Shown one piece after another: positions 20,138 through 55,552 of a stretch of DNA of 64,000 nucleotides. The notes beneath the pieces were generated by a model. It worked only from the letters and a program-made list of their open reading frames with translations, ran no database searches and was not told the origin of the DNA. The translations under genes were made by a program, and so were the position numbers. Where the stretch lies: assembly GCA_043808175.1 (NCBI GenBank), contig JAZDFE010000002.1, positions 4,906-68,905 on the forward strand, given 5' to 3'. The stretch's first letter is position 1. Every line of letters begins with the position of its first letter. Origin of the DNA: Candidatus Omnitrophota bacterium. GTDB taxonomy: Bacteria > Omnitrophota > Omnitrophia > Omnitrophales > Aquincolibacteriaceae.

Positions 20138-20668
20138 TTATCCGTGGATCGTGGTACGTGTCCCCGGAATTTCTCGGTAGATCTCAAGGTCCTGTTCTGA
20201 AAATAGAACGAAGATCACTTTTTCAAGGGACTCCGGATCTTCCTCCAGGAACCTCCGGACCGTTCCCACGGCAATCGCGGCGGCCTTCCGGATGGGAAAC
20301 CTGTAGGCCCCGGTCGAAATGGAGGGGAACGCGATCGTTTTCAAGTGATGGGTTTGAGCGCATTTTAAGGAGTTCCTGTAACAGGAGGCCAAAAGTGCTT
20401 CCTCTTGAGACTTTCCTCCGTGCCACACAGGGCCTACGGTATGAATGACAAAACGCGCCGGAAGCTCGTACCCCTTCGTGATCTTGGCCTGCCCCGTCTC
20501 GCAGCTACCCAGGCCTTTGCATGCTTCGAGAAGCGCCGGACCGGCGGCCCGGTGGATCGCGCCATCGACTCCCCCGCCGCCGAGCAGGGTCCGGTTGGCC
20601 GCGTTCACGATCGCATCGCAGCTGAGACGGGTAATATCGCCATGGATGAGTTCGATCGCAGTCTTCAT
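20138..20668 (-). CDS. macro-domain protein (O-acetyl-ADP-ribose deacetylase, YmdB-like)
   Basis: [43 protein letters not shown]. The last ~10 codons ([11 protein letters not shown]) are encoded by a heptad-repeat half element at 20143-20172. Confidence 0.88.
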
Positions 20669-20785: not shown

Positions 20786-20849
20786 CCGTCCCGAGTCCCG
20801 GCGGTTCGTGGCTCGTGGCCCGTGTCCCGATGCCGTACACGTCACACCC
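20786..20849. repeat. GC-rich heptad repeat block (CGTGG/CGTGTCC units)
   Basis: gtcccgagtcccggcggttCGTGGctCGTGGccCGTGTCCcgatgccgtacacgtcacaccc. Positions 20805-20946 are 141/142 identical to 23776-23917. Confidence 0.85.
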
Positions 20850-21657: not shown

Positions 21658-21707
21658 GGAAGAGAATGAGGATCAGGGAATGAAACGATTATTTCTGACG
21701 CTTACTC

Positions 21708-21771
21708 GAGCCACGAGCCAAGCACCACGCACCACGAAGCTCGTGTCCCGTGGTTCGTGGCACGTGTCCCC
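21708..21771. repeat. GC-rich heptad palindrome
   Basis: gagCCACGagCCAAGcaCCACGcaCCACG-aagct-CGTGTCCCGTGGttCGTGGcaCGTGTCC, directly after the histidine-kinase stop. Confidence 0.85.
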
Positions 21772-23727: not shown

Positions 23728-23820
23728 CCCCGTGTCCCTTGTCCCTGGAGTTATCGTGTCCCGTGTCCCCGGAATTTCGTGGCTCGTGGCCCGTGTCCCG
23801 ATGCCGTACACGTCACACCC
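23728..23820. repeat. GC-rich heptad repeat block
   Basis: CGTGTCCcttgtccctggagttatCGTGTCCCGTGTCCccggaatttCGTGGctCGTGGccCGTGTCC... Its right part is shared with 20805-20849. Confidence 0.85.
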
Positions 23821-24847: not shown

Positions 24848-24903
24848 ACGTGTCCCGAGTCCCGTGTCCCCGGAATTTCGTGTCCCGTGTCCCCGTGTCC
24901 CCT
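24848..24903. repeat. GC-rich heptad repeat block
   Basis: aCGTGTCCCGAGTCCCGTGTCCccggaatttCGTGTCCCGTGTCCCCGTGTCCcc. Confidence 0.8.
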
Positions 24904-25267
24904 AATCTCGGAACTGTTCCCAAAGCCGCTTGAAGCGGGGTTCGTAGATAAGGTCGTAGAGATGCGTCTTATCCGGGAAAAGACTCCGGATCAGTTCTCT
25001 GAACTTCGCTTTTTCGATCTCGATATCCACGGCCTCGCTGTCGGTGCTCAGGATCAGGAACACGATCCGGTCCTGCATCTTCTTGATCTCGGATAATTTT
25101 TCCTCTTCGATCGCAAGGTCATACTGCAGGCAGATCCGGGCAAGCCGGGCGAGGACCTCATCGCCGCCAAGTCCGAGCGGGGCCCCGCAGGGACAGACGA
25201 TCTCGCGGCCGGACTTGAAAAGCGACGCGTCATATTCCTTTTGGCATTTCGGACACTTCACCGGCAT
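24902..25267 (-). CDS. zinc-ribbon hypothetical protein
   Basis: N-terminal CPKC...CPCG four-Cys knuckle. The helical remainder has no recognisable family motif. Confidence 0.55.
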   Translation of the reverse strand: MPVKCPKCQKEYDASLFKSGREIVCPCGAPLGLGGDEVLARLARICLQYDLAIEEEKLSEIKKMQDRIVFLILSTDSEAVDIEIEKAKFRELIRSLFPDKTHLYDLIYEPRFKRLWEQFRD

Positions 25268-25564: not shown

Positions 25565-25660
25565 TTTTCCCTCCTTTTTCTTCGGTTTGAAACGACTCAT
25601 AGTCGGTTGAGAAAAAACACGGAAAAGACAAGTCCGGCCGTGTCCCGACGGTTCGTGGCT

Positions 25661-25775
25661 CGTGGCACGTGTCCCCGGAATTATTGTGTCCCGTGGTACG
25701 TGTCCCCGGAATTATTGTGTCCCGTGGCACGTGTCCCCGGAATTATTGTGTCCCATGGCTCGTGGCACGTGTCCC
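25661..25775. repeat. 3.5 tandem copies of a 31-nt unit (GC-rich heptad family variant)
   Basis: CGTGGCACGTGTCCCCGGAATTATTGTGTCC at 25661, 25692 (one substitution) and 25723, then a partial copy. The copies are contiguous with no spacers. Confidence 0.9.
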
Positions 25776-27302: not shown

Positions 27303-27339
27303 GGGATACCCCGAATGAAACTCGAAAGGTACCGTTCAA

Positions 27340-27372
27340 CGAGTCCCGAGTCCCGAGTCCCGTGTCCCCTGT
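27340..27372. repeat. heptamer tandem CGAGTCC x3 + CGTGTCC
   Basis: CGAGTCCCGAGTCCCGAGTCCCGTGTCCcctg, immediately 3' of the metallopeptidase gene. The same junction occurs at 31872-31892. Confidence 0.85.
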
Positions 27373-27377
27373 TTTTG

Positions 27378-30732: not shown

Positions 30733-30733
30733 T

Positions 30734-31709: not shown

Positions 31710-31715
31710 AAAAGA

Positions 31716-31744: not shown

Positions 31745-31847
31745 GAAAGCGAGACCTAGCAAGAACTAACAGGAGCCGAGGTCAACTCCCCCAGCGCCGC
31801 GAAAACCTCGATTTTCCCGATCTTGATTTTAATCTTCATTTTCTTTC

Positions 31848-31892
31848 GCTCCACGCTCCACGTTCCACGAATCCCGAGTCCCGTGTCCCCTG
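31848..31892. repeat. GC-rich heptad repeat block
   Basis: gctCCACGctCCACGttCCACGaatcCCGAGTCCCGTGTCCcctg. Confidence 0.8.
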
Positions 31893-31898
31893 TTTTTG

Positions 31899-41645: not shown

Positions 41646-41833
41646 CCGGTCCCAATACTTATCAATTTCCACAGAGTGGAAATTGGGGCCGTCCTTGTCG
41701 ACCATTTGGGAAAAGAATGAAAGACAAGGGCGGAGGCGCGAGTGAGTTTTTCCACGCCGGGGAAAAACGAACGGTGCCGAAGGATCCGCAAGAAATTCCA
41801 CATTTTGTTCACTTGGAATCAGGGAATTGGGGG
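41646..41833. repeat. hairpin-module array abutting the uvrB stop codon
   Basis: GGTCCCAATACTTATCAATTTCCACagaGTGGAAATTGGGGCCGTCC; CTTGTC..GACAAGggcggag; further imperfect modules. Confidence 0.7.
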
Positions 41834-43936
41834 CTAGCGTTTTTTGCGGGGGATCCGGACGGATCTTTTGGGCGTGCCCTTTTGGGGCGCGCCTTCCCCT
41901 TCGATCCGGCGGATCTCGTCGCGATAACGGGCGGCCTTGTCGAACTCCAGCGCCCGCGCGCAAGCTTCCATCCGGGTCTTGAGGAACGCGAGATAGTTCT
42001 TGGTCTCGTATGCTTTTCCGGATTCATGGACCACGTCATGGACGAACTCTTCGGCCTTTTTCCATTGTTCGATCCCGTCCTTGATCTCTTTCTGGATCGA
42101 GACCGGGGTGATCTTGTGCGCCGTATTGTAGTCCGCCTGGATCTTACGGCGGCGCGCGGTCTCATCGATCGCCCGCTTCATGGAATCCGTGACTTTGTCC
42201 CCGTACATGAGGACCCTGCCGTTGACGTGACGTGCCGCCCGGCCCGCGGTCTGGATGAGCGAAACGTCGCTCCGGAGGAAACCTTCCTTGTCCGCGTCGA
42301 GCACGACCACGAGCGACACTTCCGGGAGGTCCAGACCTTCGCGCAAAAGGTTCACGCCGATCACGCAGTCGTATTTCTTGAGACGGAAATCGCGGAGGAT
42401 CTCCACCCTCTCGAACGCGTCGAACTCCGAGTGAATGTAATGCGCCTTGATCCCGAGCTCCTTCAGGTACCGGCTGAGATCTTCGGCCATCTTTTTGGTC
42501 AGCGTCGTGACGATCGTCCGTTCCCCTTTCTTCTCCCGCGCCTTCACCTCGCCGATCAGATCGTCGATCTGTCCTTCGGTCTTCCGGACCTCGATCTGGG
42601 GGTCCATCAACCCCGTCGGGCGGATGACCTGCTCCGTCACTTCTTTCACGCGGCCCATCTCGTAAGGCCCCGGCGTCGCGGAGACATAAAGACACTGCTT
42701 CAACTTGGCCTCGAATTCCGGCCATCGGAGCGGCCGGTTATCCAGCGCGGAAGGCAGGCGGAACCCGTGGTCGACCAGGACCTTTTTCCGTGAAGCATCG
42801 CCGTTGAACATGCCGCGGATCTGCGGCACGCTTTGGTGCGACTCGTCGATGATGACGAGAAAATCCTTCGGGAAATAATCCATGAGCGTGTAAGGTGTGG
42901 AGCCGGGAGCGCGTCCGGAAAGATGACGGGAGTAATTCTCGACGCCGGAGCAATAGCCGACCTCCTTCAGCATCTCAAGGTCATATTGCGTACGCGACTC
43001 CAGGCGCTTGGCCTCAAGGTCCTTGCCTTCGGAAGCGAGTTTCTTGACGTGTTCTTTCATTTCTTGCTCGATCGATACGATCGCGGCCTCGAGCCTTTCG
43101 CCCGGGGTCACGAAATGTTTCGCGGGATAGATCGCGAGTTTTTCGACCTCCCGGAGTGCGGTCAATTTCACGGGGTCGAGAAGCGCGATCCGTTCGATCG
43201 CCTCGGGACCGCCCAAACTTTTCATTTCTTTTCCAGAGTGGTAGTTTGGACGGCCCCAATCTCCGCTTTGCTTCGATTGATCGATATTGGGACCGAAATC
43301 GATGCGGTAAGGATTCTGTCCGTACGACGGAAGGAGGTCGATCCTGCCGCCGCGTACGCGGAACGTTCCCCGCCGGAGCTCGGTCTCCTCCCTTTCATAT
43401 TGAAGGCTGATCAGGCTTGAGAGGAATTTGTCGCGGTCCGCGGCCTCGCCTTTGGCGATCGTGATGAGAAGTCCCTGCCAGTCCTCCGGCGCGCCGAGGC
43501 CGTAGATGCAGGAAACGCTTGAGACGATGATACAGTCCTTGCGCGAAAGGATGGAGCTGGTCGCGGAAAGACGCAGCCGGTCGAGGTCTTCGTTGATCGA
43601 GGCGTCTTTTTCGATGTAGGTGTCCGTGTGCGGGATGTACGCCTCCGGCTGGTAATAATCGTAATAGGACACGAAGTATTCGACGGCGTTCTCGGGGAAG
43701 AATTCCTTGAGCTCCGAATAAAGTTGCGCGGCGAGGGTCTTGTTGTGGGAGATCAAAAGCGTGGGGAGCCCGAGCCGGGCGATCACGTGCGCCATGGTGA
43801 ACGTCTTTCCCGAGCCCGTCACCCCCCGAAGGACCTGTTCCTTTTCCCCGGCCAGGAAACCCTCTACCAGCTTTTCGATCGCCTGCGGCTGATCGCCCTT
43901 CGGCTTCATGGAGGAAACCAATCTGAACCCGCTCAT
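41834..43936 (-). CDS. uvrB: excinuclease ABC subunit B
   Basis: 700 aa. Walker A GVTGSGKT, helicase motifs (DESH, ...), C-terminal UVR motif LEFDKAARYRDEI. It carries a 28-aa repeat-derived insertion. Confidence 0.95.
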   Translation of the reverse strand: MSGFRLVSSMKPKGDQPQAIEKLVEGFLAGEKEQVLRGVTGSGKTFTMAHVIARLGLPTLLISHNKTLAAQLYSELKEFFPENAVEYFVSYYDYYQPEAYIPHTDTYIEKDASINEDLDRLRLSATSSILSRKDCIIVSSVSCIYGLGAPEDWQGLLITIAKGEAADRDKFLSSLISLQYEREETELRRGTFRVRGGRIDLLPSYGQNPYRIDFGPNIDQSKQSGDWGRPNYHSGKEMKSLGGPEAIERIALLDPVKLTALREVEKLAIYPAKHFVTPGERLEAAIVSIEQEMKEHVKKLASEGKDLEAKRLESRTQYDLEMLKEVGYCSGVENYSRHLSGRAPGSTPYTLMDYFPKDFLVIIDESHQSVPQIRGMFNGDASRKKVLVDHGFRLPSALDNRPLRWPEFEAKLKQCLYVSATPGPYEMGRVKEVTEQVIRPTGLMDPQIEVRKTEGQIDDLIGEVKAREKKGERTIVTTLTKKMAEDLSRYLKELGIKAHYIHSEFDAFERVEILRDFRLKKYDCVIGVNLLREGLDLPEVSLVVVLDADKEGFLRSDVSLIQTAGRAARHVNGRVLMYGDKVTDSMKRAIDETARRRKIQADYNTAHKITPVSIQKEIKDGIEQWKKAEEFVHDVVHESGKAYETKNYLAFLKTRMEACARALEFDKAARYRDEIRRIEGEGAPQKGTPKRSVRIPRKKR
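43211..43296. repeat. two hairpin modules inserted in frame inside uvrB
   Basis: CCAAACTtttcatttcttttccagagtggtAGTTTGGacggc + CCCAATctccgctttgcttcgattgatcgatATTGGGaccg. Both have close relatives at 21456-21495 and 21580-21625. Confidence 0.8.
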
Positions 43937-43992: not shown

Positions 43993-44949
43993 TCACAAGT
44001 GGGATCCCCTTTCGGCGGCATCGCCGAAACGGGACGGAAAAGGCTCATACCAGTCAAGCAAGAGGGAGAAATCAACGGCTTTAACGGAATGGGTCAGGGC
44101 ACCGACGGAAATGGTATCGACGCCCGTTGCGGCAAACTTACGGACGTTCGCGAGCGTGATACCTCCCGAGGCTTCGATCATGACGCCAGGGGCTTCCTTG
44201 TGAATGATCCCCACGGCCCTCCGGGTTTCCTTGGGCGAAAAATTATCCAGAAGGATCACCTTGGGCTTGAGCGCGATCGATTGGCGGAGCTCCTTGAGGT
44301 CGCGGACCTCGATCTCGAAATCACGCAGGTGTCGTTTCAGTTTCGAAAGATCGCCGTAAAGCCGGTGGTTTTCCTTCACGAAAATATACGCATCCAGGCC
44401 GGGGCGGTGTCTCCGACCCCCGCCGACCTCAACGGCCACCTTTTCCAGTTCGCGCCAAAGCGGCGCGGTCTTGCGCGTGTGGAGAAGAAGGACCGGATAT
44501 TCTTTTATTTTTTCCACGAACTGGCGCGTTTTGGTCGAGATCCCGGAAAGATGGCTGATAAAATTGAGCAGGGTCCTCTCCACCTTCAGGATCGACCGGA
44601 TATTCCCGCGCATTTTGAAAACGATCTTCCCGGGCCGGAGCTTCCCTCCGTTATGGACCCAGAATTCGAGCTTCACTTTCGGATCCACGATCTTGAAGAT
44701 CTCTCTTACGAGCCGCTCGCCGCAAAAGATCCCGCGGTCCTTGGCGATCACACGGGCTTCGCCCTTGGTTTGGGCCGGGATCAGAAGATTTGAGGTGATA
44801 TCTCCGTGTCCGATATCCTCCCTCAGGGCTTCCTTGATGAAATTCAGGGTCCGCTGGGAGACATGGAGCGGATGGCCGTGGATGCCGTGCCTTTTGCTAA
44901 AGACCGGCGAGCTGGGTTTTGTAGGATACAAGAAGACTTTTCGCATCAT
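43993..44949 (-). CDS. nadC: nicotinate-nucleotide diphosphorylase (carboxylating)
   Basis: ALREDIGHGDITS, ERTLLNF, HTRKT, VKENH, IEASGGI. The start is set at the first in-frame ATG (44949), which overlaps the valS 3' end by ~50 nt. The start is uncertain. Confidence 0.85.
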   Translation of the reverse strand: MMRKVFLYPTKPSSPVFSKRHGIHGHPLHVSQRTLNFIKEALREDIGHGDITSNLLIPAQTKGEARVIAKDRGIFCGERLVREIFKIVDPKVKLEFWVHNGGKLRPGKIVFKMRGNIRSILKVERTLLNFISHLSGISTKTRQFVEKIKEYPVLLLHTRKTAPLWRELEKVAVEVGGGRRHRPGLDAYIFVKENHRLYGDLSKLKRHLRDFEIEVRDLKELRQSIALKPKVILLDNFSPKETRRAVGIIHKEAPGVMIEASGGITLANVRKFAATGVDTISVGALTHSVKAVDFSLLLDWYEPFPSRFGDAAERGSHL

Positions 44950-47707
44950 TGAGTTTCTCTTTTTCTTTTTCAAGGATCTCTTTTGGCGCTTTTTCGGCAA
45001 AAGAAGGGTTCTCAACTTTTTTACGGATGTTCTCTATCCATTGTTCGGTTTCTTGGATCCTTTTCTGGAGCCGTTTTTTCTCTTCTTCCGGGTCCAGGAT
45101 CCCCTCGAGCGAGATAAAAATATCAAAAGCCGCAAAGGAGTTCGCCGCCATCGTGCCTTTTTTCTGGAAGGTACGCACACATTGAAGCTCCGCGAGCCGG
45201 CCCAGTGTCTTCACCTCGCGTTCAAAGGCTTTAAAGATCTCCTGCGTCCCCTGCTCTTTACAAACAAGGGCGGCCTTGAGTTTCTCCGTCGGCGCGATCC
45301 GGGACCGGACCCTGAGATCGCGGATACCGCCCACGGCGTCCTGCAAAAGACCGATCGCCTCCTGCGCTTCCGCGTCGTGGAACTTCTTTTTCCCGTCATG
45401 CGGCCAACCGGCGAACATGAGGGTCTCGGGCCAGGTATTGGCGTCGGCCGCTTTTTGTTTGAACGTCTGCCAGATCTCTTCGGTGATGAACGGCATGAAA
45501 GGATGCAGGAGCCTCAGGATCTTTTCTGTCACATAAAAAAGAACTTTTTGCGTCTGAAGTTTTAAAGCGGCGTCGGCGGATTGGGTCATGGGTTTTGCGA
45601 GCTCGATATACCAGTCGCAGAAATCATCCCACACGAAGTGATAAAGCTCGATCGCCGCCTGGGCGAGGCCGAACTGGGAAAGGTGCTTTTCGATCGCAGC
45701 GGCTTTTTCCTCAAGACGCGACAGGATCCAGCGGCTGGGAAGCGAGAGTGCTTCCTTTTTGAACTGTCCGGGGTCCGTCGAAGCGGTTTCGAGGCCCCCG
45801 AGTTGCATCAGCACGAACCGGCAGGCGTTCCAGACCTTGTTCGCGAAATTACGGCCGACTTCGAATTTTTCGCGCGAAAGATAAACATCCTGCGCCGAAA
45901 GCATCACGAGACTGTAGCGCAGGGCGTCGGCCCCCATCTCTTCGATCACCTCAAGCGGGTCGATGGAGTTCCCGAGCGATTTCGACATCTTGAGCCCGGT
46001 GGCTACGCGGACCGTGCCGTGAATATTAATTTGGGTGAACGGGACTTCGCCCATGAATTCAAGGCCCGCCATGATCATGCGCGCCACCCAGAAGAAAATG
46101 ATCTCCGGAGCGGTCACGAGGTCCGAGGTCGGGTAGAATTTTTTCAGGTCTTCGGTCTTGGCCGGCCAGCCCAGGGTCGAGAACGGCCACAGCCAGCTGG
46201 AAAACCAGGTGTCTAAAACATCAGGATCTTGTTGAAGTTCGGTGTTCCCGCAAGAGGGACATTTTGACGGCTTTTCGCGAGCGACAATGATCCCTTCCGA
46301 GCCACGAGCCACGGGACACGGCCCATCGGATTTTTCGTGGTTCGTGGCACGTGGTGCTTGGCCCTGCGCGCAGCGCGCGCAATACCACGCCGGGATCTGA
46401 TGCCCCCACCAGATCTGCCGCGAGATACACCAGTCACGGATGCCGCCGAGCCAGTTAAGATAAACCTTGGTCCAGCGGTCCGGATAGAAAACCGTTTTTC
46501 CCTGCTCATGCGCCTTGAGGGCCTTCGCGGCCAGCGGCTGCATTTTGACGAACCATTGTTTGGAAAGGTACGGTTCGACCACGGTATCGCACCGGTAGCA
46601 ATGTCCGACCGCGTGCAGATGCGAATCGCGTTTAATGAAAAGACCGCGCGCCTCGAGATCATGAATGATCTTCTTACGCGCGTCGAACCGGTCCATCCCC
46701 TTGTAAACACCACCGCGTTCGTTGATCTTGCCGTCCGGCGTCATGACATTGATCTGCTCGAGATTATGGCGGTACCCCATCGCGAAGTCGTTGGGGTCAT
46801 GCGCCGGCGTGACTTTCACGATGCCGGTCCCGAATTCAGGGTCCACAAATTCATCCGCGATCACCGGGATCTCGCGGTCCATGAGCGGCAGGATGACCTT
46901 CTTGCCGATCAAGCGTTTGTAACGCGGATCGCCCGGATGGACCGCGACGGCCGTATCACCCAACATCGTTTCGGGACGCGTCGTCGCGACCACGATATGG
47001 TCTTCGCCCATCTTTTCATGGGGACCGCTCTTCCCCGCGATCGGATATTTGATGTGATAAAGCCCGCCCTGCACGTCCTTGTGGGCGGCTTCTTCGTCCG
47101 AAAGCGCGGTCTGGCAGCGCGGGCACCAGTTGATGATATAGTTGCCGCGATAGATCAGCCCCCGTTCATAGAGCGTGACGAACGCCTCGCGTACCGCCTT
47201 GGAAAGCCCTTCGTCCATGGTGAACCGTTCGCGGGTCCAGTCGCAGGAAGCCCCGAGGCGGCGGAGCTGGCGCGTGATGGTCGACCCGTGTTCGTTCTTC
47301 CATTTCCAGACTTCTTTTAAGAAAGCCTCGCGGCCGACGTCCCACCGGGTTTTCTTTTCCTTGGCGAGTTTCTTCTCCACCACATTCTGCGTCGCGATCC
47401 CCGCGTGGTCTACGCCCGGCACCCAAAGCGTATCCCGGCCTTTCATGCGGTTCCAACGGACGAGGACATCCTGGATGGAATTATTGAGCGCGTGGCCCAT
47501 GTGCAGGATGCCCGTGACATTGGGAGGAGGAATGACAATGACGTAAGGGCCCACGGGACACGGGCCATGGGCCACGTCTTTTTCCGTGGAGCGTGGGGCG
47601 TGGGACGTGGCCCGGTCACTTTGCGGGCGGAAATAACCCTTCGACTCCCAGAGGGAATACCACTTGGTTTCGACCTGCCTAGAATGATATTGTTTGTCTA
47701 GTTCCAT
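44897..47707 (-). CDS. valS: valine--tRNA ligase
   Basis: Trimmed to the ATG at 47707 (MELDKQYH...). HIGH region PPPNVTGILHMGHA, KMSKS LKMSKSLGN, CP1 editing domain, C-terminal coiled coil. It contains two repeat-derived in-frame insertions. Confidence 0.95.
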   Translation of the reverse strand: MELDKQYHSRQVETKWYSLWESKGYFRPQSDRATSHAPRSTEKDVAHGPCPVGPYVIVIPPPNVTGILHMGHALNNSIQDVLVRWNRMKGRDTLWVPGVDHAGIATQNVVEKKLAKEKKTRWDVGREAFLKEVWKWKNEHGSTITRQLRRLGASCDWTRERFTMDEGLSKAVREAFVTLYERGLIYRGNYIINWCPRCQTALSDEEAAHKDVQGGLYHIKYPIAGKSGPHEKMGEDHIVVATTRPETMLGDTAVAVHPGDPRYKRLIGKKVILPLMDREIPVIADEFVDPEFGTGIVKVTPAHDPNDFAMGYRHNLEQINVMTPDGKINERGGVYKGMDRFDARKKIIHDLEARGLFIKRDSHLHAVGHCYRCDTVVEPYLSKQWFVKMQPLAAKALKAHEQGKTVFYPDRWTKVYLNWLGGIRDWCISRQIWWGHQIPAWYCARCAQGQAPRATNHEKSDGPCPVARGSEGIIVAREKPSKCPSCGNTELQQDPDVLDTWFSSWLWPFSTLGWPAKTEDLKKFYPTSDLVTAPEIIFFWVARMIMAGLEFMGEVPFTQINIHGTVRVATGLKMSKSLGNSIDPLEVIEEMGADALRYSLVMLSAQDVYLSREKFEVGRNFANKVWNACRFVLMQLGGLETASTDPGQFKKEALSLPSRWILSRLEEKAAAIEKHLSQFGLAQAAIELYHFVWDDFCDWYIELAKPMTQSADAALKLQTQKVLFYVTEKILRLLHPFMPFITEEIWQTFKQKAADANTWPETLMFAGWPHDGKKKFHDAEAQEAIGLLQDAVGGIRDLRVRSRIAPTEKLKAALVCKEQGTQEIFKAFEREVKTLGRLAELQCVRTFQKKGTMAANSFAAFDIFISLEGILDPEEEKKRLQKRIQETEQWIENIRKKVENPSFAEKAPKEILEKEKEKLNDAKSLLVSYKTQLAGL
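46299..46366. repeat. GC-rich heptad palindrome inside valS (internal)
   Basis: gaGCCACGaGCCACGgGACACGgcccatcgg-attttt-CGTGGttCGTGGcaCGTGGtgCTTGGccctg. It encodes ...APRATNHEKSDGPCPVARGS... between the CARC and CPSC zinc knuckles. Confidence 0.8.
47547..47615. repeat. GC-rich heptad palindrome inside valS (N-terminal)
   Basis: gggcCCACGgGACACGggCCATGggCCACG-tcttttt-cCGTGGagCGTGGggCGTGGgaCGTGGcccgg. It encodes ...RATSHAPRSTEKDVAHGPCPVGP... just before the HIGH motif. Confidence 0.8.
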
Positions 47708-47716
47708 AAATTCAAA

Positions 47717-47782
47717 GAGCCACGGCCCACGCACCACGAGCTACGATTTTCGTGGCCCCTGGCCCGTGGAACGTGGCCCCGG
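47717..47782. repeat. GC-rich heptad palindrome (cimA/valS junction)
   Basis: gaGCCACGgcCCACGcaCCACGagCTACG-atttt-CGTGGccCCTGGccCGTGGaaCGTGGcccc. Confidence 0.88.
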
Positions 47783-47784
47783 TT

Positions 47785-49353
47785 TTACCCTTTGTGCAGT
47801 TTATATTCGATGGCTTCCACGAGGGCTTGCCAGCTGGCTTCGATGATGTTCTCGTGAACGCCCACCGTGGTCCAGCTCCTGTCCTTGTCCTGGAATTCGA
47901 TGAAAACGCGCACCTTGGCGGCGGTCCCGGCCTCGGAATTAACGACGCGCACTTTATAATCCGTCAGGTGGATCTCGGAGATCGACGGGAACGAACGGCC
48001 GAGCGCTTTGCGGAGCGCGGAATCAAGCGCGTTCACCGGGCCGTCCCCTTCGGCGGATTCGAAATGCTCCTCCCCTCCGGCCGTGATCGTGACGTCCGCA
48101 ATGGAACGAGGGATCCCTTTGCCGATATTCTCGGTCCGGACCGAGATGTCTTTGACTTTGAAGAACGGCTTGAATTTTCCGAGAAGTTTCTGCACCAAAA
48201 GCTCGAAGCTCGCCTCCGCGGCCTCGAATTGGTAGCCCTCATGTTCAAGGCGCTGGATCTCGGTCAGGATCTTCTGCGTCTCGGGCGAATCCTTTTTGAA
48301 ATGCATCTCGAGTTCCCGGGCCTTGATCATGATATTGGTCTTCCCGCCAAGCTCGGAGACGAGGTAGCGGCGATAATTGCCGAGGGCCTTGGGCTCCACG
48401 TGCTCGTAGGTCTTGGCGTTCTTCATCATGGCGTTGATATGCACGCCGCCTTTATGCGCGAACGCGGAACGGCCCGTGAACGGCTGGTGGTTCACGAGCG
48501 GCATATTGCAAACCTCGGCCACGTAGTGCGAGAGCTGGGTCAATTCTTTCATCTTCTTCGCCGGAAAACACGGGGTCTTCATCTTGAACTGCAGGTCCGG
48601 GATGATGCTCACGAGGTTCGCGTTCCCGCAGCGCTCCCCGTAGCCGTTGATCGTTCCCTGCACCAGGACGCATCCTTCGCCCACCGCCTGAATGGAATTC
48701 GCGACCGCGAGTTCGGAATCATTGTGGCAATGGATGCCGAGCGGCGTTCTCACGGAGCGCTTCACTTTAAGGATCGCGTGACGGATCTCGTGCGGCAAAC
48801 TCCCGCCGTTCGTGTCACAAAGCGTGAGAATATCGGCCCCCGCCTTCGCGGCCTGCCGGAGCGTTTCGAGCGCGTAGTCCGGGTTCGCTTTGAACCCGTC
48901 GAAGAAATGTTCCGCATCATAGATCACTTCGAGCCTCCGGTCCTTGAGATAAGCGACCGTCTCGTAGATCATCAGAAGATTTTCTTTGAGCGTGGTCTTG
49001 AATACTTCCGAAACGTGAAAATCCCAGGATTTCCCGAACACCGTCGCCACCCGGGTGCCGGCCCCGATCAAAGCCTTCACGTTCGGGTCGTCCTTGACCT
49101 TGGTGTGTGCGCGCCGCGTGGAGCCAAAAGCCACGATCCTGGAACGCTTGATCCCGGCTTTCTTGACCATCGCGAAGAATTCCATGTCCTTGGGGTTCGA
49201 GCCCGGCCACCCGCCTTCGATGTAGTGAATGCCGAACTGATCGAGCCGTTTCGCGATCAGGAGCTTGTCATGCGAAGACAGACTGATGCCTTCCGCTTGA
49301 GAACCGTCGCGGAGCGTGGTGTCGTAAAATAGTATTTTTTTGGTTTTACTCAT
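47785..49353 (-). CDS. cimA: citramalate synthase (LeuA-related, CimA-type)
   Basis: FYDTTLRDGSQAEGISLS..DKL.IA..LD.FGI.YIEGGWPGSNPKD is the hallmark N-terminus of CimA-type enzymes. HxH metal site GIHCHND. C-terminal LeuA-dimer-like regulatory domain. Confidence 0.8.
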   Translation of the reverse strand: MSKTKKILFYDTTLRDGSQAEGISLSSHDKLLIAKRLDQFGIHYIEGGWPGSNPKDMEFFAMVKKAGIKRSRIVAFGSTRRAHTKVKDDPNVKALIGAGTRVATVFGKSWDFHVSEVFKTTLKENLLMIYETVAYLKDRRLEVIYDAEHFFDGFKANPDYALETLRQAAKAGADILTLCDTNGGSLPHEIRHAILKVKRSVRTPLGIHCHNDSELAVANSIQAVGEGCVLVQGTINGYGERCGNANLVSIIPDLQFKMKTPCFPAKKMKELTQLSHYVAEVCNMPLVNHQPFTGRSAFAHKGGVHINAMMKNAKTYEHVEPKALGNYRRYLVSELGGKTNIMIKARELEMHFKKDSPETQKILTEIQRLEHEGYQFEAAEASFELLVQKLLGKFKPFFKVKDISVRTENIGKGIPRSIADVTITAGGEEHFESAEGDGPVNALDSALRKALGRSFPSISEIHLTDYKVRVVNSEAGTAAKVRVFIEFQDKDRSWTTVGVHENIIEASWQALVEAIEYKLHKG

Positions 49354-49370
49354 AAGTTTAAACTTTCAAA

Positions 49371-49447
49371 GGGCCGCGGGACACGACCCGCGAGCCACGA
49401 CCCGCGAGCCACAAAAACGTGGCGCGTGGACCGTAGAACGTGGACCG
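49371..49447. repeat. GC-rich heptad palindrome (lysC/cimA junction)
   Basis: gggccgcgGGACACGacCCGCGagCCACGacCCGCGagCCAC-aaaaa-CGTGGcgCGTGGacCGTAGaaCGTGGaccg. Confidence 0.88.
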
Positions 49448-49449
49448 TA

Positions 49450-50667
49450 TTATTTCTTGCCGAGTCCGAACGCCTGGTGAATGACCTTCGCGGCGAGCTT
49501 GCCTTTATCGCCGGCCACCACGACCGAGATCTTGATCTCGGAAGTGGAGATCATATCGATATTGATCTTGTTCTTGGCCAAGGTCGAGAACATCTTGGAC
49601 GCGATGCCCGAATGGGACCGCATGCCGATCCCGACCACGCTCACCTTCGCGATATTCTCGTCGCAAGTGACGTTCGTGGCGCCGACCTTCTTCATGGCGG
49701 CTTTCACGACCTTCATGGCCTTCACCAGTTCGTTCTTGAAGACGGTAAAAGAAATATCCGTGGAATTCGTCTGTGTTTTGTTCTGGATGATCATATCCAC
49801 GTTTACATTCGCGTCCGCCAGGGTCTGGAAGACCTTGGCCGCCACGCCCGGACGGTCCGAGACGCGGAACAGGGTGATCTTGGCTTCATCTTCGGCGAGT
49901 GCGACGCCGCTTACGACGACTTCTTCCATGGCTTTATTCTCCTTCGTGATAAGAGTTCCTTTGTGGTCGTTCTGGGAATTGCGGACCCAGATCGGCATGT
50001 TGAATTTTTTCCCGACTTCGATCGAACGTGAATGCATCACTTTCGCGCCGAGCGACGCGAGCTCCAGGATCTCATCGTAAGTGACCCGGTCCATCTTTTG
50101 CGCTTCCGGGATCACGCGCGGGTCCGCGGTGAAGATCCCGTCCACGTCCGTATAGATCTCGCAATGTTTCGCCTTCAGGGCGACCGCGAGCGCCACGGCC
50201 GTCAGATCGGAACCGCCGCGACCGAGCGTCGTGATCTCGCCCGAGGGCGTCTGGCCCTGGAATCCGGCCACGATCACGATCTTCCCTTCGCTCAAGGCCT
50301 TCTTGATCCGATCCGGGCTGATGTTCTGAATACGCGCCTTGCTGTGGAACTCATCCGTCATGATCCCGACCTGCGGGCCCGTGAACGAGACCGCTTCATG
50401 ATCGAGCTTGTGGATCGCCATGGCCAAAAGCGCGATCGACACCTGCTCGCCCGTGGCAAGCAACATGTCCATCTCGCGCTCCTGCGGATCGGAGTTGATC
50501 TGTTTCGAGAGATCGATCAGGTCGTCGGTCATATCGCCCATGGCGGAAACGACCACGACGACCTTGTTCCCCGCTTGCTCGGTTTTGATCACACGTTGAG
50601 CGACCCGTAAGATCTTTTCCGCGTTCGCGACCGAGGAACCGCCGTATTTCTGTACGATCAATGACAT
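49450..50667 (-). CDS. lysC: aspartate kinase
   Basis: Trimmed to the ATG at 50667 (MSLIVQKYGGSSV). Kinase core plus two C-terminal ACT domains. Confidence 0.92.
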   Translation of the reverse strand: MSLIVQKYGGSSVANAEKILRVAQRVIKTEQAGNKVVVVVSAMGDMTDDLIDLSKQINSDPQEREMDMLLATGEQVSIALLAMAIHKLDHEAVSFTGPQVGIMTDEFHSKARIQNISPDRIKKALSEGKIVIVAGFQGQTPSGEITTLGRGGSDLTAVALAVALKAKHCEIYTDVDGIFTADPRVIPEAQKMDRVTYDEILELASLGAKVMHSRSIEVGKKFNMPIWVRNSQNDHKGTLITKENKAMEEVVVSGVALAEDEAKITLFRVSDRPGVAAKVFQTLADANVNVDMIIQNKTQTNSTDISFTVFKNELVKAMKVVKAAMKKVGATNVTCDENIAKVSVVGIGMRSHSGIASKMFSTLAKNKINIDMISTSEIKISVVVAGDKGKLAAKVIHQAFGLGKK

Positions 50668-50730
50668 GGTAATGACCTTTTCGATTTGATTGGTTTTAAA
50701 AAACATGTTTCCAAAATAACCACCGTTGTG

Positions 50731-50780
50731 CGGGCCACGTTCCACGCGCCACGCATTCCGTGGCCCTTGGCCCGTGGAAC
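50731..50780. repeat. GC-rich heptad palindrome (kinase/lysC junction)
   Basis: cggGCCACGttCCACGcgCCACG-cattc-CGTGGccCTTGGccCGTGGaac. Confidence 0.88.
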
Positions 50781-50785
50781 AGCTC

Positions 50786-51991
50786 CTAAGAGGCCTTAGT
50801 CATGAAAAATGGCATCAGTTCCGTGGTTTTATTGAATTTCACTTCCGAAGTTTTGGCCGCGAGCTCCGAGAACCGCTCGATCTCGTCAGGCATGATGTTC
50901 TTGCCGGTCACGGCGAAGGGAACGCTGTCGCGAACGATCTCCTTCATTTTCCAAAGGGTCGCATGACCCGGCGTGACCAGAAGGCGCGAATCTTTGGAGC
51001 GCTCCAGATATTTGCGGACCTTCGAAAGAACGAAGAAATCGATCCCCTCGATCGCCGAGACCTTTCCCTTCACATCTCCGGCCCGCGACGCCTCCTCGGG
51101 AGTGTGGAGATGGAGACAAACAAAATCTTTTTCTTCCAGGGCCTCGATCGCCACTTTGGAGATCTTGTCATAAAAAGCCGCGGGCTCTTCGCCCCCTTCC
51201 TTGACCTCCATGACCGTGAGTCCCGCCATGCGGCCCAGGCCCCTCGCGTATTCGCGCGCGGCGACCATCGCGCCGCCGGTGATGTCAAAACATTCGCGGA
51301 AAGGTGTGAGGAACGGCTTCTTTCCCTGTCCCCAAAGCCAGATCATGTTCGCGGGATTCTCGCCGAGGTCCACGCGCACCTGATTGATCTCATGGTCCTG
51401 CAAGAGAAGCCTGGCGTCATACATCAATTTTCGCATCAATTCCTCGCCCGGACCCTTCGGCAGCACATCCTCGATCTTCTCGCCGATCACGCTCTCGGGC
51501 GGCTGGGTCTTCGCGGACAAGGCCTCGAATCCGTTCGCGTCCTTGATCACCGCAAGGTGCCGGTGCCCGGAACCCGAGAAGAACCGCACAAAATCGCTTG
51601 CTACCTTTTTGTTCAAAAAATTGACGAGCGCCTTCGCCTCTTTGGTGCTAAGGGCTCCGGCAGTCGGATCGGCCAGCATCCCCGCGGCCTCGGTGATGAA
51701 ATTCATGCAGAACGCGACTTCTTTGTCGTCGAGCGTCAGTTCCTTATCGGCAGCCTCAAGCGGTCCGCGGCCGGTATAAAGTTTCGACGCGTCGTAGCCT
51801 AAAAGATTGAATAGGCTCACGTCCGCGGAAAGCGGCAAACGTTCGGAAACAAGTTTCGCGGTCCCTACCTTTCCGTTCTTCGCAAAAAAATTCAAATTGG
51901 GGACCTTGGCCGCTTCCAAAGGAGTTTTTCCTCCGAGTTCCTCGGTCGGATGATCCGCAGCGCCCGCGAGAACCACAACGATAGATTTCAT
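50786..51991 (-). CDS. cofactor-independent phosphoglycerate mutase (ApgM) family protein; proposed non-canonical homoserine kinase
   Basis: [28 protein letters not shown] ApgM-type N-terminus with metalloenzyme core. It sits between thrC and lysC, overlapping the thrC stop. The kinase role is by analogy with thr-operon-linked ApgM homologues. Confidence 0.7.
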
Positions 51992-53058
51992 CGGATGACC
52001 TCCTTTACGGCATCGAGAGTGGATTTGACCTTATAGACCGGATCTTCGAAGCTGAGCGCAAAATCGGGGTCTTTCAACCCCGCACCCGTCAGCGTGATCA
52101 CAATGCGGGATCCTTCCTTGAAAAATCCCTTTTTCGCTAGGTTGATCACTCCGGCGACCGGCGCAACACTGGCCGGTTCCGCGAACACGCCTTCGCGCTC
52201 CGCGATAAAACGGTACGCCTTCGTGATCTCCTCGTCCGTCACCTTATCGATCAGGCCGCCCGATTCGTCGCGCGCGTTGACGGCGCCCTGCCAGCTCGCG
52301 GGATTTCCGATACGGATGGCAGTCGCGATCGTCTCCGGTCTTTCCACCGGATGCCCCAGCACGATCGGTGCGGACCCCGCGGCCTGAAAGCCGAGCATCT
52401 TCGGTAAGGTTTCGGACTTCCCCGCTTTTTTATATTCCTTGTAGCCCATCCAGTAAGCCGTGATATTGCCGGCATTCCCGACCGGGATCGCGTGATATTC
52501 CGGTGCGTCCCCGAGATCATCGACGATCTCGAACGCCGCCGTCTTCTGTCCTTCGATGCGGTACGGATTGATGGAATTCACAAGCGTGATCTTCCCTTCC
52601 CGGGTGATCTCTTTGACGAGTTCAAGCGCCTTGTCAAAATTCCCCTCGACCATGATCACCTTCGAGCCGTAGCGGTACGCCTGCAAAAGTTTTCCTTTGG
52701 CGATCTTCCCTTCCGGGATCAACACAAAACATTTGAGCCCGCACCGGCACGCGTAAGCCGCGGCAGAGGCGGACGTATTCCCGGTCGAGGCGCACATCAC
52801 GGCCTTCGAGCCCGCTTCAACCGCCTTCGAGATCGCCAGGGTCATCCCGCGGTCCTTGAACGAACCCGTCGGGTTCAGGCCTTCGAATTTGTAATAGATC
52901 CGGATATTTTTCAGACCGAGTTCCTGAGGCAGGGCCTCCGCGAGAATGAGCGGCGTATTGCCTTCATTGAGCGAAATGATGGGCGTCTTATCCGTGACCG
53001 GAAGATATTCCTGATAGCGCTCGATGATCCCGATCTTCTTGACCGCGTATGTCCCCAT
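51988..53058 (-). CDS. thrC: threonine synthase
   Basis: PLP-lysine motif [14 protein letters not shown]. 356 aa, collinear with short-type ThrC. Confidence 0.92.
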
Positions 53059-53062
53059 ACCG

Positions 53063-54358
53063 TCAGGCCTCTTCGATGCGAATGACCTGGGTCTTGCCCT
53101 TGATACAGGACATGCCGTCGATCTCGCGGACCGCGGCCCTCAGGTCTTTTTCGTGGGTATCATGCGTTAAAAGGATGAGCGGCACCACGCGCCCCGCGCT
53201 GCGTTCACGCTGCATGACGTCCGAGATGCTGATCTTGTGTTTTCCGAGGATCTTCGAGATATTCGCGAGCACGCTGGGTTTGTCGATCACATAGAACCGT
53301 AAATAATAGCGCGACAGGATCGAGAAAATGCTTTTCACCGGGAGGGTCTTCCCGAGCGCCCGGACCATGAACCGGTCCTCTGCGGGCCCCGCGACTCCGG
53401 CTTTCGCGATATCCACCAGGTCCGCGATCACCGCGCTCGCGGTCGGATGCGGCCCCGCTCCGCGGCCGTAAAAAAGCACGTCGCCCACTTCGTCGCCGCG
53501 CATGAGGATCGCGTTGAACGATCCGTTCACGTTCGCGAGGATGTGCGAATTCGGCAAAAGCGTCGGCTGAACGCGCGCCTCCATACCCTCCCCCGACCGC
53601 TTGGCGATCGCGAGCAATTTGATCGTGTACCCGAATTCTTTGGCGAAGGCAATATCGTCGCTTGAGATCTCGGTGATCCCCTCGCAGTAAATGTCCTTGA
53701 ACTTCACTTTCCCGCCGAAAGCGAAACGGGCGAGGATCGCGAGCTTGTGCGCGGCGTCGTGCCCGCTCACGTCAAGAAAAGGGTTCGCCTCGGCAAAACC
53801 CTGCTTCTGGGCGCCGGTCAATGCTTCCTTAAAACTCATGCCCTTGGCGGTCATCTGGGTCAGGATGTAATTCGTGGTCCCGTTGATAATGGCGTGCATC
53901 GAATCGATACGGTTCGCCGCAAGTCCTTCACGAAGCGCCTTGATGCACGGAATGCCGCCTCCCACGCTCGCCTCAAAACAAAGCCAGCGTTTCATCCGGT
54001 GCGCGAGTGCGAAGATCTCATCGCCGTGCTCGGCCAGAAGGGCTTTATTAGCGGTCACCACATGTTTGCCGTTTTTGAGCGCTTCTTTGATCAACTGCCG
54101 GGCGACCGTTGTGCCGCCGATCAGTTCGACCACGACATCAATGGACGGATCCCGCACGACGGCAAAAGCGTCCCGGGTCATGATACTTTTCGGAGGATGG
54201 ACTTTTTTATTCCGCCCGGGATATTTCTCCGCGATCCTCGCGAGCTCGAAAGACACCCCGAGCTGGCGGGCGAACAAAGCCTTCTTCGCCTTAAGGATCT
54301 CATAAAGTCCGGTGCCGATCTGTCCCAACCCGAGAAGTCCGATCTTGATCTTTTTCAT
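53063..54358 (-). CDS. hom: homoserine dehydrogenase
   Basis: Trimmed to the ATG at 54358, which has GAGGAG upstream. NAD-binding [11 protein letters not shown], catalytic domain, C-terminal ACT domain. Confidence 0.92.
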
Positions 54359-54411
54359 ATTTCTCCTCAAGCAAACGCCCTAAGTTCAGTAATGACAAAA
54401 CCTTAAGTCGG

Positions 54412-54500
54412 GGCAGCACTGATTCTCATTGATTGAAAATTATAATGTAATCAGTGCAGTCCTGGCTACCTTCAATTTCCAATAAAAGCCAGGGCAGTAT
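54412..54500. repeat. hairpin-module array (two modules)
   Basis: CTGATTctcattgattgaaaattataatgtAATCAGtgcagtc + CTGGCTaccttcaatttccaataaaAGCCAGggcagtat. Confidence 0.75.
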
Positions 54501-54547
54501 ATCCCACCCCAAAGTAAAAATCAAACAGCCCTTGCCCTTGAAATGCC

Positions 54548-54595
54548 GCACCACGCCAACCGCTCCACGCGCCACGTGGCACGTGCTACGAGGTG
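54548..54595. repeat. GC-rich heptad palindrome upstream of hom
   Basis: gcaCCACGccaaccgctCCACGcgCCACGTGGcaCGTGCtaCGAGGtg, centred on CACGTG. Confidence 0.8.
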
Positions 54596-54685
54596 TTTCA
54601 GCATTTCCAACGGAGTTTACTTTAAAAATGATTTATGTATACTATTCCCCTGTTTTCCGTCATAAACTAAATAAAGGGTCCACCT

Positions 54686-55111
54686 ATGAAAAAGGGTTAT
54701 CTTGTTATTCTTGTTCTTTTGACCACCGTCATCCAACTCGGCATGGCGCGGTCCGGCCAGTATGATGAAGACGCGCGCGCGCAGGAAAAGATCCAGAAAC
54801 AAATGGATAACGAGAACCTAACCCCTGAAAAGAGCCATCCCGCAAAAAATTTCGCGACGGGAGTTAAAGAAATGACGGTTGATAATGTGAAGGACACTCT
54901 CGACGATACGGCCCACAGCACCATGAGCGAAAAGCCGGTGGTCGGGACCCTGGACGGAACGCAGCAGGCAGGAGAAAAGGTCGTCGATAACACCATCAAG
55001 GGCGTCAAGAAGGTCGTTTCTCTCGGCTACGCGAAAAACGATCATTACGAGATCGAACAGGCCGAAAAGGGCTCCGGCGACGCCGCCAAGATCAAGCTCT
55101 TCAAGTTCTAA
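54686..55111 (+). CDS. secreted hypothetical protein
   Basis: Signal-like MKKGYLVILVLLTTVIQLGMA. The 141-aa hydrophilic mature part has no motif. Confidence 0.6.
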   Translation: MKKGYLVILVLLTTVIQLGMARSGQYDEDARAQEKIQKQMDNENLTPEKSHPAKNFATGVKEMTVDNVKDTLDDTAHSTMSEKPVVGTLDGTQQAGEKVVDNTIKGVKKVVSLGYAKNDHYEIEQAEKGSGDAAKIKLFKF

Positions 55112-55131
55112 AAACGACGCAGCGCTTCAAC

Positions 55132-55165
55132 AAAAAAGCCGGGTCAAAAAAGCCTGGCTTTTTTT
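55132..55165. terminator. bidirectional intrinsic terminator
   Basis: AAAAAA-AGCCGGG-tcaaaaaag-CCTGGCT-TTTTTT. It has an A-run upstream and a T-run downstream, so it reads as a terminator on both strands. Confidence 0.65.
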
Positions 55166-55393
55166 GTGCCTCAACCCAATAGACTTGGGTGCATCCCCCT
55201 TCCGCTGTTTATTTGTCTCTTTATTGAGCCCTCCGTCGGGAAGTGTGTTTCGCCAACGTTCGCCATGCCCCGCCGAGGCATGACTTCACTCGCAAGCGTC
55301 GGCCTCGATGAAAAACCGTGGCTCTCGGCCTCCTTAGCGTGGCTCGCCGCACTTCCCGCCGTCGGCTCAAGAGAAGGCGAAAAGTTGAGATGA

Positions 55394-55552
55394 GGCAGGC
55401 AGGAATCGTAACGAGACAGCTCTCGGAGCTGATGGGAGCTTGGTTCCGTTCCTCATGAACGGATCCCATCAGCGAGAGCGCAGGCTGGCACTCGCCGCTG
55501 GAGCGAGTGAACAGCCGGTGTTGAGAGACGATTCCTGCCTGCCACCCTGCCC
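55394..55552 (+). ncRNA. conserved multi-stem element, copy B (transcribed strand unknown)
   Basis: 16-bp closing helix GGCAGGCAGGAATCGT / ACGATTCCTGCCTGCC. Nested hairpins CAGCTC-tcg-GAGCTG, CTGATGGGA...TCCCATCAG around TCCGTTC-ctcat-GAACGGA, and CACTCGC-cgctgga-GCGAGTG. It shares four sequence blocks with copy A. Confidence 0.5.

Follow-up and report, generated by a model that had tools for sequence, protein, structure and literature searches.

The window analyzed in this work is a stretch of 64,000 nt from a Candidatus Omnitrophota bacterium (contig JAZDFE010000002.1), in which the genes hom, thrC, an ApgM-type gene, lysC, cimA and valS form one string on the minus strand and genes for a membrane fusion protein (MFP) and a resistance-nodulation-division (RND) pump adjoin each other elsewhere; these labels, given in a first-pass annotation, are correct by Pfam. 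Between cimA and valS lies a palindrome (47717-47782) that reads, as had been noted, as four nnCCACG units, a T-rich loop and four CGTGGnn units; it starts about 4-7 nt past the cimA stop codon and leaves about 7-9 nt before the valS AUG. It belongs to a family of 15 loci within the 64 kb that share the heptad n-G-(C/A)-CACG, nine of them inverted pairs and six single-orientation arrays (Table 1). The copies listed in the first-pass annotation, both full (starting at 5089, 21708, 47717, 49371, 50731 and 54548) and variant or half elements (20143, 20786, 23728, 24848, 25661, 27340 and 31848), are all present; two further full copies, at 46300-46363 and 47549-47612, had been missed and lie in frame in valS. 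The elements of the window are heptanucleotide repeat hairpins of the short tandemly repeated repetitive (STRR) type. Their design had been taken as unrecognized, and it matches both STRR sequences (PMC2670836) and the inverted heptamer pairs of Xanthomonas (PMC4692102); the design is therefore already known, and it is the phylum that is new. The DNA around valS from seven related genomes (L121-L127) was compared with the window.

Pooling the 101 heptad units of the window, which are arranged in 26 arms and account for 692 nt (1.08% of the DNA), gives the consensus n-G-(C/A)-C-A-C-G. Conservation is 87-96% at positions 4-7; at position 3, C (67%) alternates with A (30%), and positions 1-2 are degenerate yet G-biased, with a G at position 2 in 61% of the units, so that the letters outside the core are not the arbitrary "NN" that had been proposed. 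Because position 3 can be C or A, the CGTGTCC and CGAGTCC units fall within the same family. Arms usually hold three (11 arms) or four units (10 arms) and rarely five or six. With at most one mismatch allowed, the window contains 58 occurrences of the motif pair CCACGNNCCACG, 3.7 being expected, and no shuffle out of 100 reached this number. A sequence-agnostic detector found 19 strict tandem arrays at period 7, compared with about 0.3 in shuffles and with 0, 0, 0, 1, 0 and 0 arrays at periods 5, 6, 8, 9, 10 and 11, respectively. Arrays accompanied by an inverted partner were detected at period 7 only (10 detections, corresponding to eight elements), with none at other periods or in shuffles.

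In the inverted pairs, a CCACG arm, the loop and a CGTGG arm always follow each other in this order (polarity 6 to 0 for exact patterns, window and relatives together). Watson-Crick pairing in register involves 112 of 125 core positions and 10 of 50 spacer positions, the latter being the chance level. Because the cores pair while the spacers pair at chance, each arm is an independent array of an oriented core and not one side of a hairpin complementary along its full length. The description of 5-bp core helices split by 2x2 mismatches consequently stands as regards which positions pair, but on the transcribed strand the interruptions are mostly 1x1, as G-U and extra pairs in the minus-strand RNA turn most of the 2x2 loops of the plus strand into single mismatches. 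The elements of the window are predicted to fold into hairpins on both strands, with energies from -11 to -43 kcal/mol, and for the inverted pairs, counting the transcribed-strand fold given next, the range is -22 to -49 kcal/mol; for the RNA of the cimA-valS spacer, read on the transcribed (minus) strand, the prediction was -49.2 kcal/mol (z = -6.1), and none of 200 shuffles was as stable. Among 12 independent intergenic copies, the sense hairpin was stabler than the antisense one in 10 (two-sided P = 0.04), an edge that results from G-U pairs in the sense strand at positions that are A-C mismatches in the antisense one; this bias is suggestive only. An opposite tendency of coding copies, namely destabilization of the sense strand, was considered and rejected, since it fits five of five valS copies and does not fit the independent coding copies of L180 (-13.2 kcal/mol) and L217 (-8.0 kcal/mol), both of which favor the sense strand.

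Twelve of the 15 elements are intergenic, against an intergenic background of 18% (P = 3e-7), which bears out the earlier view that they punctuate gene junctions, except that two copies are translated within valS and one forms the end of a Macro-domain gene. Considering window and relatives together, the array starts 0-9 nt past the upstream stop codon in 14 of 15 junction copies, the sole exception being the cimA-valS junction of L121, where another palindromic repeat occupies that spot. When only independent junction copies are counted, 12 of 13 are closer to the upstream stop than to the next start (P = 0.003; Fisher combined P = 0.004). Stable GC-rich hairpins directly past stop codons might be taken for terminators or attenuators of transcription by which the hom-to-valS string is divided into separate units. 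This explanation is largely refuted and we consider it barely credible: (i) no copy carries a trailing U-tract and the flanks are without T-runs, (ii) no heptad element was found among the terminator-like sites searched for in 44000-56000, (iii) several elements leave just 0-28 nt to the next start codon, with no room for a promoter, and (iv) two copies lie inside the valS open reading frame (ORF). Given the missing U-tracts, the short gaps and the translated copies, the downstream genes, including the essential valS, must be transcribed through the element. This read-through fits the mRNA role that had been suggested by analogy with repetitive extragenic palindromic (REP) elements better than it fits termination, although the elements are not REPs in the strict sense, as the GTAG/CGTC tag is absent. 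As for translation signals, no Shine-Dalgarno-like sequence was seen between elements and downstream starts (for instance at 47708-47716 and 49354-49371 of the window, or at 9995-10000 of L123), and the junctions of L126 and L127, which are empty, are likewise without a visible one; the stretch ahead of the AUG at the junctions is A/U-rich, as in CUCUUUGAAUUU-AUG.

The comparison with relatives distinguishes shared, replaced and missing elements. Identity between the window and L121 is 83.6% at 4-fold degenerate sites (845/1011), and the two have CCACG palindromes in common at the apgM-lysC junction, where 3 of 50 nt differ and none of the 30 core nt does, upstream of hom, where the L121 copy is longer by exactly 14 nt (two units), and at the first of the two insertion sites within valS (site 1), where it is shorter by exactly 21 nt (three units). 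Across the two intergenic copies common to both genomes, 0 of 55 core nt changed (probability at the neutral rate, 5e-5), and of the 23 nt in spacers and loops about 5 did. The cores are held either by selection or by a homogenizing process that spares the spacers.

At other orthologous positions the heptad itself is exchanged. The cimA-valS junction is occupied by CCACG units in the window, GCGTACG/CGTACGC in L121, GGACTCG/CGAGTCC in L122, CGGGGAA/GTTCCCC in L123 and GCGCAAC/GTTGCGC in L124, all with a common architecture and an A-rich loop. At the second valS site (site 2), with inserts of 51-63 nt, the window has CCACG, L121 GGGGAAC, L122 GGGACTC and L123 a CAGAC-nn family, and the site is empty in L126 and L127; as the insertion points of the window and L122 lie about two codons apart, the alignment indicates that these two inserts are independent events. 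The lysC-cimA junctions of L121 and L122 hold sequences unrelated to that of the window, and the hom-thrC junction, which has no element in the window, carries a GGGGTAG palindrome in L125 (65% ValS identity). Finally, L126 and L127 (80-82% ValS identity, 34 kb in total) contain no strict array at all and have compact junctions of 8-37 nt. The notion that the elements are conserved parts of the operon could therefore not be upheld, given the empty junctions of these two relatives and the different heptads of the others. Import of the whole valS gene by recombination was rejected as the cause of this turnover, as 4-fold identity stays at about 0.8 outside the insert windows. Around site 2, valS codons ~470-495 show two flank haplotypes downstream of the insert that are common across lineages, IIVAREKPSKCPSCGNTELQQDP in the window and L122 and VIVSREDIxxCPHCxSKDIxRDE in L121 and L123, and 4-fold identity is locally low (18/31). 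This pattern suggests a recombination mosaic around an insertion hotspot, and local allelic exchange may contribute to the turnover at site 2.

A conserved core of 4-5 nt beside two or three free positions, repeated at a fixed 7-nt spacing, could also be a binding array that an oligomerizing protein reads in a 7-nt register, on double-stranded DNA or on single-stranded RNA or DNA, the hairpin being incidental. The ribbon-helix-helix omega repressor binds consecutive 7-bp WATCACW heptads, whose orientation may be direct or inverted, and the DNA architecture of the window elements fits an operator of this kind. Cold-shock proteins, in turn, bind heptamer repeats with one protein per heptamer (PMC4679880). 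The independence of the arms, with non-complementary spacers and uncompensated variants at position 3, agrees with such an array, as do the conservation of the cores as sequence and the presence of single-orientation arrays at the same post-stop position as the pairs. However, the heptads of relatives differ at the same sites (GCGTACG, GGACTCG, GGGGAAC, GCGCAAC, CAGAC-nn), which argues against a single specific binder of the omega type and would call for repeated co-evolution or for several binders, and the arms are mutually complementary in every family, which binding would not require. We thus regard a binding array as quite improbable.

G-quadruplex repeats, with G-tracts every 7 nt folding on the sense strand, deserve mention because G-quadruplexes have been shown for the GGGNATC heptamers of Xanthomonas and Nostoc (PMC4692102). 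Single arms of the window read GGGACAC-GGGACTC in sense, with G3-N4 spacing, the families of relatives include GGGGAAC and GGGGTAG, and the usual arm has three or four units, four being the number required for a G-quadruplex (PMC4692102). For the window this explanation is nonetheless highly improbable: most CCACG units lack a G3 tract, GG being present at positions 1-2 in just 39 of the 101 units and the CCACG core itself having no G-tract, the GCGTACG, GCGCAAC and CAGAC-nn families have none either, and in paired elements the duplex competes with it.

The ValS protein encoded by the host gene of the two in-frame copies matches that of a Candidatus Omnitrophota metagenome-assembled genome (MAG) at 100%; site 1 lies immediately ahead of its PPPNVTG...HMGH motif, and site 2 separates the two Cys pairs that make up its zinc knuckle. 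Among 32 aligned ValS orthologues (67-93% identity), just two positions are indel hotspots, and they coincide with the heptad copies; some orthologues have neither insert, and the inserts of others back-translate to different heptads. Relatives with an empty site 1 have an 8-aa linker there. Both inserts are also extra with respect to Thermus thermophilus ValRS (1GAX), which has a short linker at site 1 and a gap at site 2. An AlphaFold2 model of ValS was uninformative on the inserts as loops, its mean pLDDT being 58.6 and the catalytic core being low too. In metagenomes, Pfam placed in-frame copies in a CobA/CobO/BtuR adenosyltransferase (L138), a UbiX-type flavoprotein (L180) and a cyclase-NB-ARC (STAND) protein from a 70%-GC genome (L133), and a further one lies in a protein whose length exceeds 2,300 aa (L217). 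In-frame copies can be tolerated in surface-exposed protein linkers, where the heptads persist because the unit is stop-free in every frame and a set of three units leaves the phase of translation intact. We also considered whether freedom from stop codons is an adaptation, as none of the six frames of CCACGNN contains a stop, whatever the NN, and 10 of 11 heptad families likewise lack stops. This was ruled out, since 78% of heptads of 70% GC are expected to be stop-free and the excess is not significant; the absence of stop codons accounts for read-through and not for the heptad design.

In-frame insertions into housekeeping genes at lineage-specific points, next to relatives with empty sites, are what a purely selfish miniature mobile element would leave behind, that is, an element comparable to a MITE (miniature inverted-repeat transposable element), to REPs and REPINs or to the Rickettsia palindromic element (RPE), moved by a trans-acting enzyme, devoid of host function and placed wherever insertion was tolerated. 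The presence of one family at no fewer than 15 loci within 64 kb and the signs of inter-locus copying, namely a higher-order unit of 21 nt that recurs and a segment of 150 nt that is duplicated, point in the same direction, and so does the coexistence of a second, unrelated palindromic family that is also found in frame, in uvrB. Several observations speak against it. Apart from the arrays themselves no terminal inverted repeats were found, the termini are not conserved, loops, spacers and unit numbers vary between copies, and variable unit numbers with unrelated spacers are unlike the copy-paste of a master element. No clear target-site duplication emerged from the comparison of filled with empty sites, and no consistent GTAG/CGTC tag was seen within 10 nt of either end in the nine palindromes. 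Pfam revealed no transposase or REP-associated tyrosine transposase (RAYT) among the ORFs of the window, and only two matches to the palindromic pattern came from viral contigs. Moreover, orthologous cores are conserved above the neutral rate, unlike pure junk. On balance, we consider a purely selfish element unlikely.

Outside this genome, at least 120 metagenome loci match the palindromic pattern, and among the matches listed about 31 carry arms of three or more units. A scan of a genome collection with CCACGNNCCACGNNCCACG was non-specific and recovered mostly 21-nt coding repeats of high-GC taxa; among the matches listed, the only palindromic one was in an Omnitrophota MAG (L115). Other palindromes were encountered as well. 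Two metagenome contigs of 66-67% GC, L206 (2,650 nt) and L228 (2,100 nt), contain 37 and 28 strict period-7 arrays of GACCACG-type units, which make up about 40-45% of their length and run forward and then in reverse; these kilobase-scale heptad palindromes belong to an unrelated high-GC organism. Eight loci of sample Ga0114957 (L132, L135, L136, L156, L168, L170, L182 and L183) carry perfect palindromes composed of AACCACGAACCACG, an AT-rich loop of 18-20 nt and CGTGGTTCGTGGTT, with complementary spacers and similar loops between copies; they are REP/MITE-like and unlike the design seen in the window.

Taken together, we think it probable that these elements are slippage-prone arrays of the STRR type whose paired form acts as a transcribed, REP-like RNA hairpin between cistrons. 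The arrays would grow and shrink by replication slippage, and copies would survive only where harm is small, a few nt past a stop codon or in permissive protein loops. Transcribed as part of a polycistronic mRNA, the paired form would fold into an imperfect hairpin of 45-70 nt made of 5-6-bp helices, which most likely blocks 3'-to-5' exonucleases or marks a processing boundary and in this way would set the relative stability of neighboring cistrons. Being within reach of the terminating ribosome, the hairpin may also affect termination or re-initiation; in Escherichia coli, REPs located no more than about 15 nt from a stop codon reportedly stall ribosomes. The core positions would be under selection for as long as an element exists, while spacers and loops drift. 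The RNA-hairpin role in cistron stability or processing is what we infer from placement, folding and core conservation; such a role would be generic, as a single junction is served by five different heptads, and it would be dispensable, as L126 and L127 have none.

Several points weigh against this reading. First, slippage copies spacers too and so does not alone explain conserved cores with unrelated spacers, nor does it explain why one heptad dominates a genome. Second, L126 and L127 show that the operon works without the elements. Third, the sense-strand bias is weak, the independent metagenome sample is small and mixed, and the asymmetry between strands could also arise from a C-to-T bias linked to transcription. 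In addition, the cores are invariant and offer no compensatory covariation that would separate structure from sequence motif, the C/A variants at unit position 3 are uncompensated in the opposite arm, and single-arm arrays are unable to form the hairpin yet occupy the same post-stop position.

The elements of the window are compiled in Table 1, and every single-arm heptad array among them falls in a repeat-rich island of small genes at about 20000-32500, which contains Gp49/HTH toxin-antitoxin-like pairs and two Zincin_1 paralogues, with SIR2, Macro and PIN genes nearby. The island has undergone segmental duplication: 20797-20946 recurs at 23768-23917 (97%, 150 nt), 20939-21046 at 30602-30709 (95%), 27333-27632 at 31854-32153 (96%) and 29525-29719 at 31590-31784 (95%). 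Within it, 25654-25775 is a 31-nt tandem repeat in four copies, each made of heptads (GGACACG-TGCCACG-GGACACA in sense) and the linker CCGGAATTATT; a CRISPR-like or tandem-spacer reading was rejected, as there are no spacers and the repeat is one of plain tandem heptads plus linker. The unit GAAATTCCGGGGACACG, which encodes the peptide EIPGTR at the end of the Macro-domain gene, recurs at 23760-23780 and 24870-24885.

Table 1. Heptad elements of the window and the gene that hosts two of them.
Feature	Position	Strand	Context
Focal palindrome, 4+4 units, loop ATTTT (+ strand)	47717..47782		between cimA stop (47785) and valS start (47707)
Palindrome, mixed CCACG/CCGCG units	49372..49452		between lysC stop (49450) and cimA start (49353)
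Palindrome, 3+3 units	50731..50780		between stop of ApgM-type gene (50786) and lysC
Palindrome centred on CCACGTGG	54548..54595		upstream of hom
Palindrome, 4+4 units, valS site 1	47549..47612		in frame in valS, ~21 aa encoded
Palindrome, 3+4 units, valS site 2	46300..46363		in frame in valS, 57 nt (19 aa) extra
valS, valine-tRNA ligase, host of two in-frame copies	44897..47707	minus	translation, 100% match to Omnitrophota MAG ValS
Palindrome, 4+4 units, no loop	5088..5143		between MFP stop (5150) and RND pump start (5074)
Palindrome	21702..21771		4 nt past stop (21775) of PAS histidine-kinase gene
Mixed palindrome, (nnCCACG)x3 followed directly by CGAATCC/CGAGTCC/CGTGTCC units	31846..31895		3 nt past stop (31899) of Zincin_1 gene
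Single arm, GGACACG then GGACTCG x3 in sense	27338..27374	minus	3 nt past stop (27378) of paralogous Zincin_1 gene
Single-orientation arrays	25636..25775	minus	4 nt past stop (25781) of cyclophilin-like gene
Single-orientation array, GGACACG/GGACTCG units	24848..24903	minus	abuts stop of ORF 24902..25267
Single-orientation arrays	23728..23800	minus	upstream of UPF0047 gene, part of 150-nt duplicated segment
Single-orientation array	20786..20829	minus	upstream of Macro-domain gene
Single arm, GGACACG TACCACG ATCCACG	20143..20172	minus	last ~9 codons of Macro-domain gene (20138..20668), running into its stop

The second palindromic family is not built of heptads and follows approximately the scheme GTCCCAATAC..TATCAATTTC-hairpin-GAAATTGGGGC. 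Its copy in uvrB (41834..43936, minus) is an in-frame insert at 43208-43295 of 81 nt (27 aa, PNIDQSKQSGDWGRPNYHSGKEMKSLG) between YRIDF and GPEAIERI, which breaks the Pfam UvrB_inter match; it is missing from the UvrB of L121, L122, L126 and L127, and GGTCCC stands at both of its ends. Further copies lie at 21452-21619, 23980-24029 and 41649-41698 and, in L121, directly past the cimA stop. At the far end of the window, 55620-63974 (minus) is a giant ORF of more than 2,784 aa that probably runs off the window and contains ARMT1-like, B12-binding/radical SAM, nucleotidyltransferase, Bac_transf and GT1 domains; its syntenic counterparts were called at 9,273 aa in L123 and 6,476 aa in L124.

The reason why 7-nt repeats are favored in prokaryotic genomes, how one heptad comes to spread to many loci and what the arrays do are questions that have been standing since STRRs were described in 1990. 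The comparative set assembled here bears on them, as it offers, at a neutral divergence of about 16%, the same junctions empty or filled by one or another heptad family, together with length changes in steps of whole units and a measurable constraint on the cores. It is tempting to speculate that the common architecture, in which a heptad array, an A-rich loop and an inverted heptad array are placed 0-9 nt past stop codons and in protein loops, with interchangeable heptads and with spacers that seem to lack complementarity from the outset, is the product of a dedicated Omnitrophota system. Such a system could be an enzyme that writes or mobilizes arrays or an RNA-binding factor working in heptad register with its sites under selection, and in both cases it would be distinct from passive slippage; we assign this a low probability, but if true, small genomic elements would gain a new class, one by which essential proteins are remodeled as well. 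On the practical side, heptad repeats inflate and diversify the proteins of uncultured bacteria and can confuse gene calling, the choice of start codons and the alignment of orthologues. Our literature search found no description of heptad repeats in Omnitrophota, and a large study of Omnitrophota genomes does not mention repeats (PMC10066038).

Among known systems, the REPs, bacterial interspersed mosaic elements (BIMEs) and REPINs of proteobacteria are high-copy extragenic imperfect palindromes at gene 3' ends in operons, where they serve as mRNA stabilizers or processing points. The elements of the window are likewise palindromes at gene 3' ends within operons, and the functional model adopted here derives from that precedent. 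In contrast, REPs are single palindromes of 20-40 nt linked to RAYTs, and they are tagged by GTAG or CGTC (PMC3733652), whereas the window elements consist of 7-nt units in variable number and carry no tag. With the RPEs, palindromic repeats that lie in frame in unrelated housekeeping genes and add stretches of peptide at positions tolerated by the protein fold (PMC10969869), they share in-frame insertion into coding genes, twice in valS and, in metagenomes, in genes for CobO, UbiX and STAND proteins. RPEs are, however, about 150 bp long, encode a conserved peptide and contain no heptads, whereas the present elements span 45-80 nt and encode peptides that vary with frame and family; the lineages are different and the sequences are not related, and no Rfam family matches the heptad elements.

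The closest parallels are found among heptanucleotide repeats. Heptanucleotides are stated to be the most abundant class of long simple repeats in most prokaryotic genomes, with polymerase slippage as the proposed origin (Mrazek et al. 2007, as cited in PMC4679880). The TAACTGA direct repeats of Beggiatoaceae, cyanobacteria and Bacteroidetes are dispersed and intergenic, with 2-6 units and a suggested post-transcriptional role (PMC4679880); they resemble the window family in being dispersed intergenic 7-nt arrays of patchy distribution, some of which overlap stop codons, and they differ in being AT-rich, almost all direct (one indirect), located just upstream of starts and interrupted by stops in all forward frames. 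The cyanobacterial STRRs comprise several families of 7-bp repeats. They form hairpins in the stretch between genes that are co-transcribed, such as hupS and hupL, and a function in transcript stability or translational coupling has been proposed for them (PMC2670836). The position as 7-nt repeat hairpins between co-transcribed genes is the same; phylum and units differ, and the STRR text consulted describes neither in-frame copies in housekeeping genes nor turnover at orthologous sites. Every structural STRR-type feature tested was found in the window family.

The GGGAATC repeats of Xanthomonas and the GGGGAYT repeats of Nostoc and Anabaena are tandem heptamers, and in each genome a single unit predominates (Rehm et al. 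2015, PMC4692102). Of these repeats, 89-93% lie in intergenic regions, in most cases between aligned ORFs and near the upstream one, at an average of 28 nt; about four units are preferred and each genome has 70-75 convergent pairs capable of forming stem-loops; their location is kept between close relatives while length and sequence vary; most are transcribed, and a minority is intragenic, up to 32% in Anabaena (PMC4692102). Tandem 7-nt units, convergent pairs, proximity to the upstream ORF and variation in unit number are thus common to these repeats and to the elements of the window. The latter differ in their unit, n-G-(C/A)-CACG, which mostly has no G-tract, so that the G-quadruplex account is not transferable, in lying tighter on the stop codon (0-9 nt as compared with an average of 28 nt), and in their Omnitrophota host, the replacement of one family by another at orthologous sites and the copies within an essential aminoacyl-tRNA synthetase. 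Altogether, our results extend a known and poorly understood class of repeats to a new phylum and do not overturn the current understanding of it.

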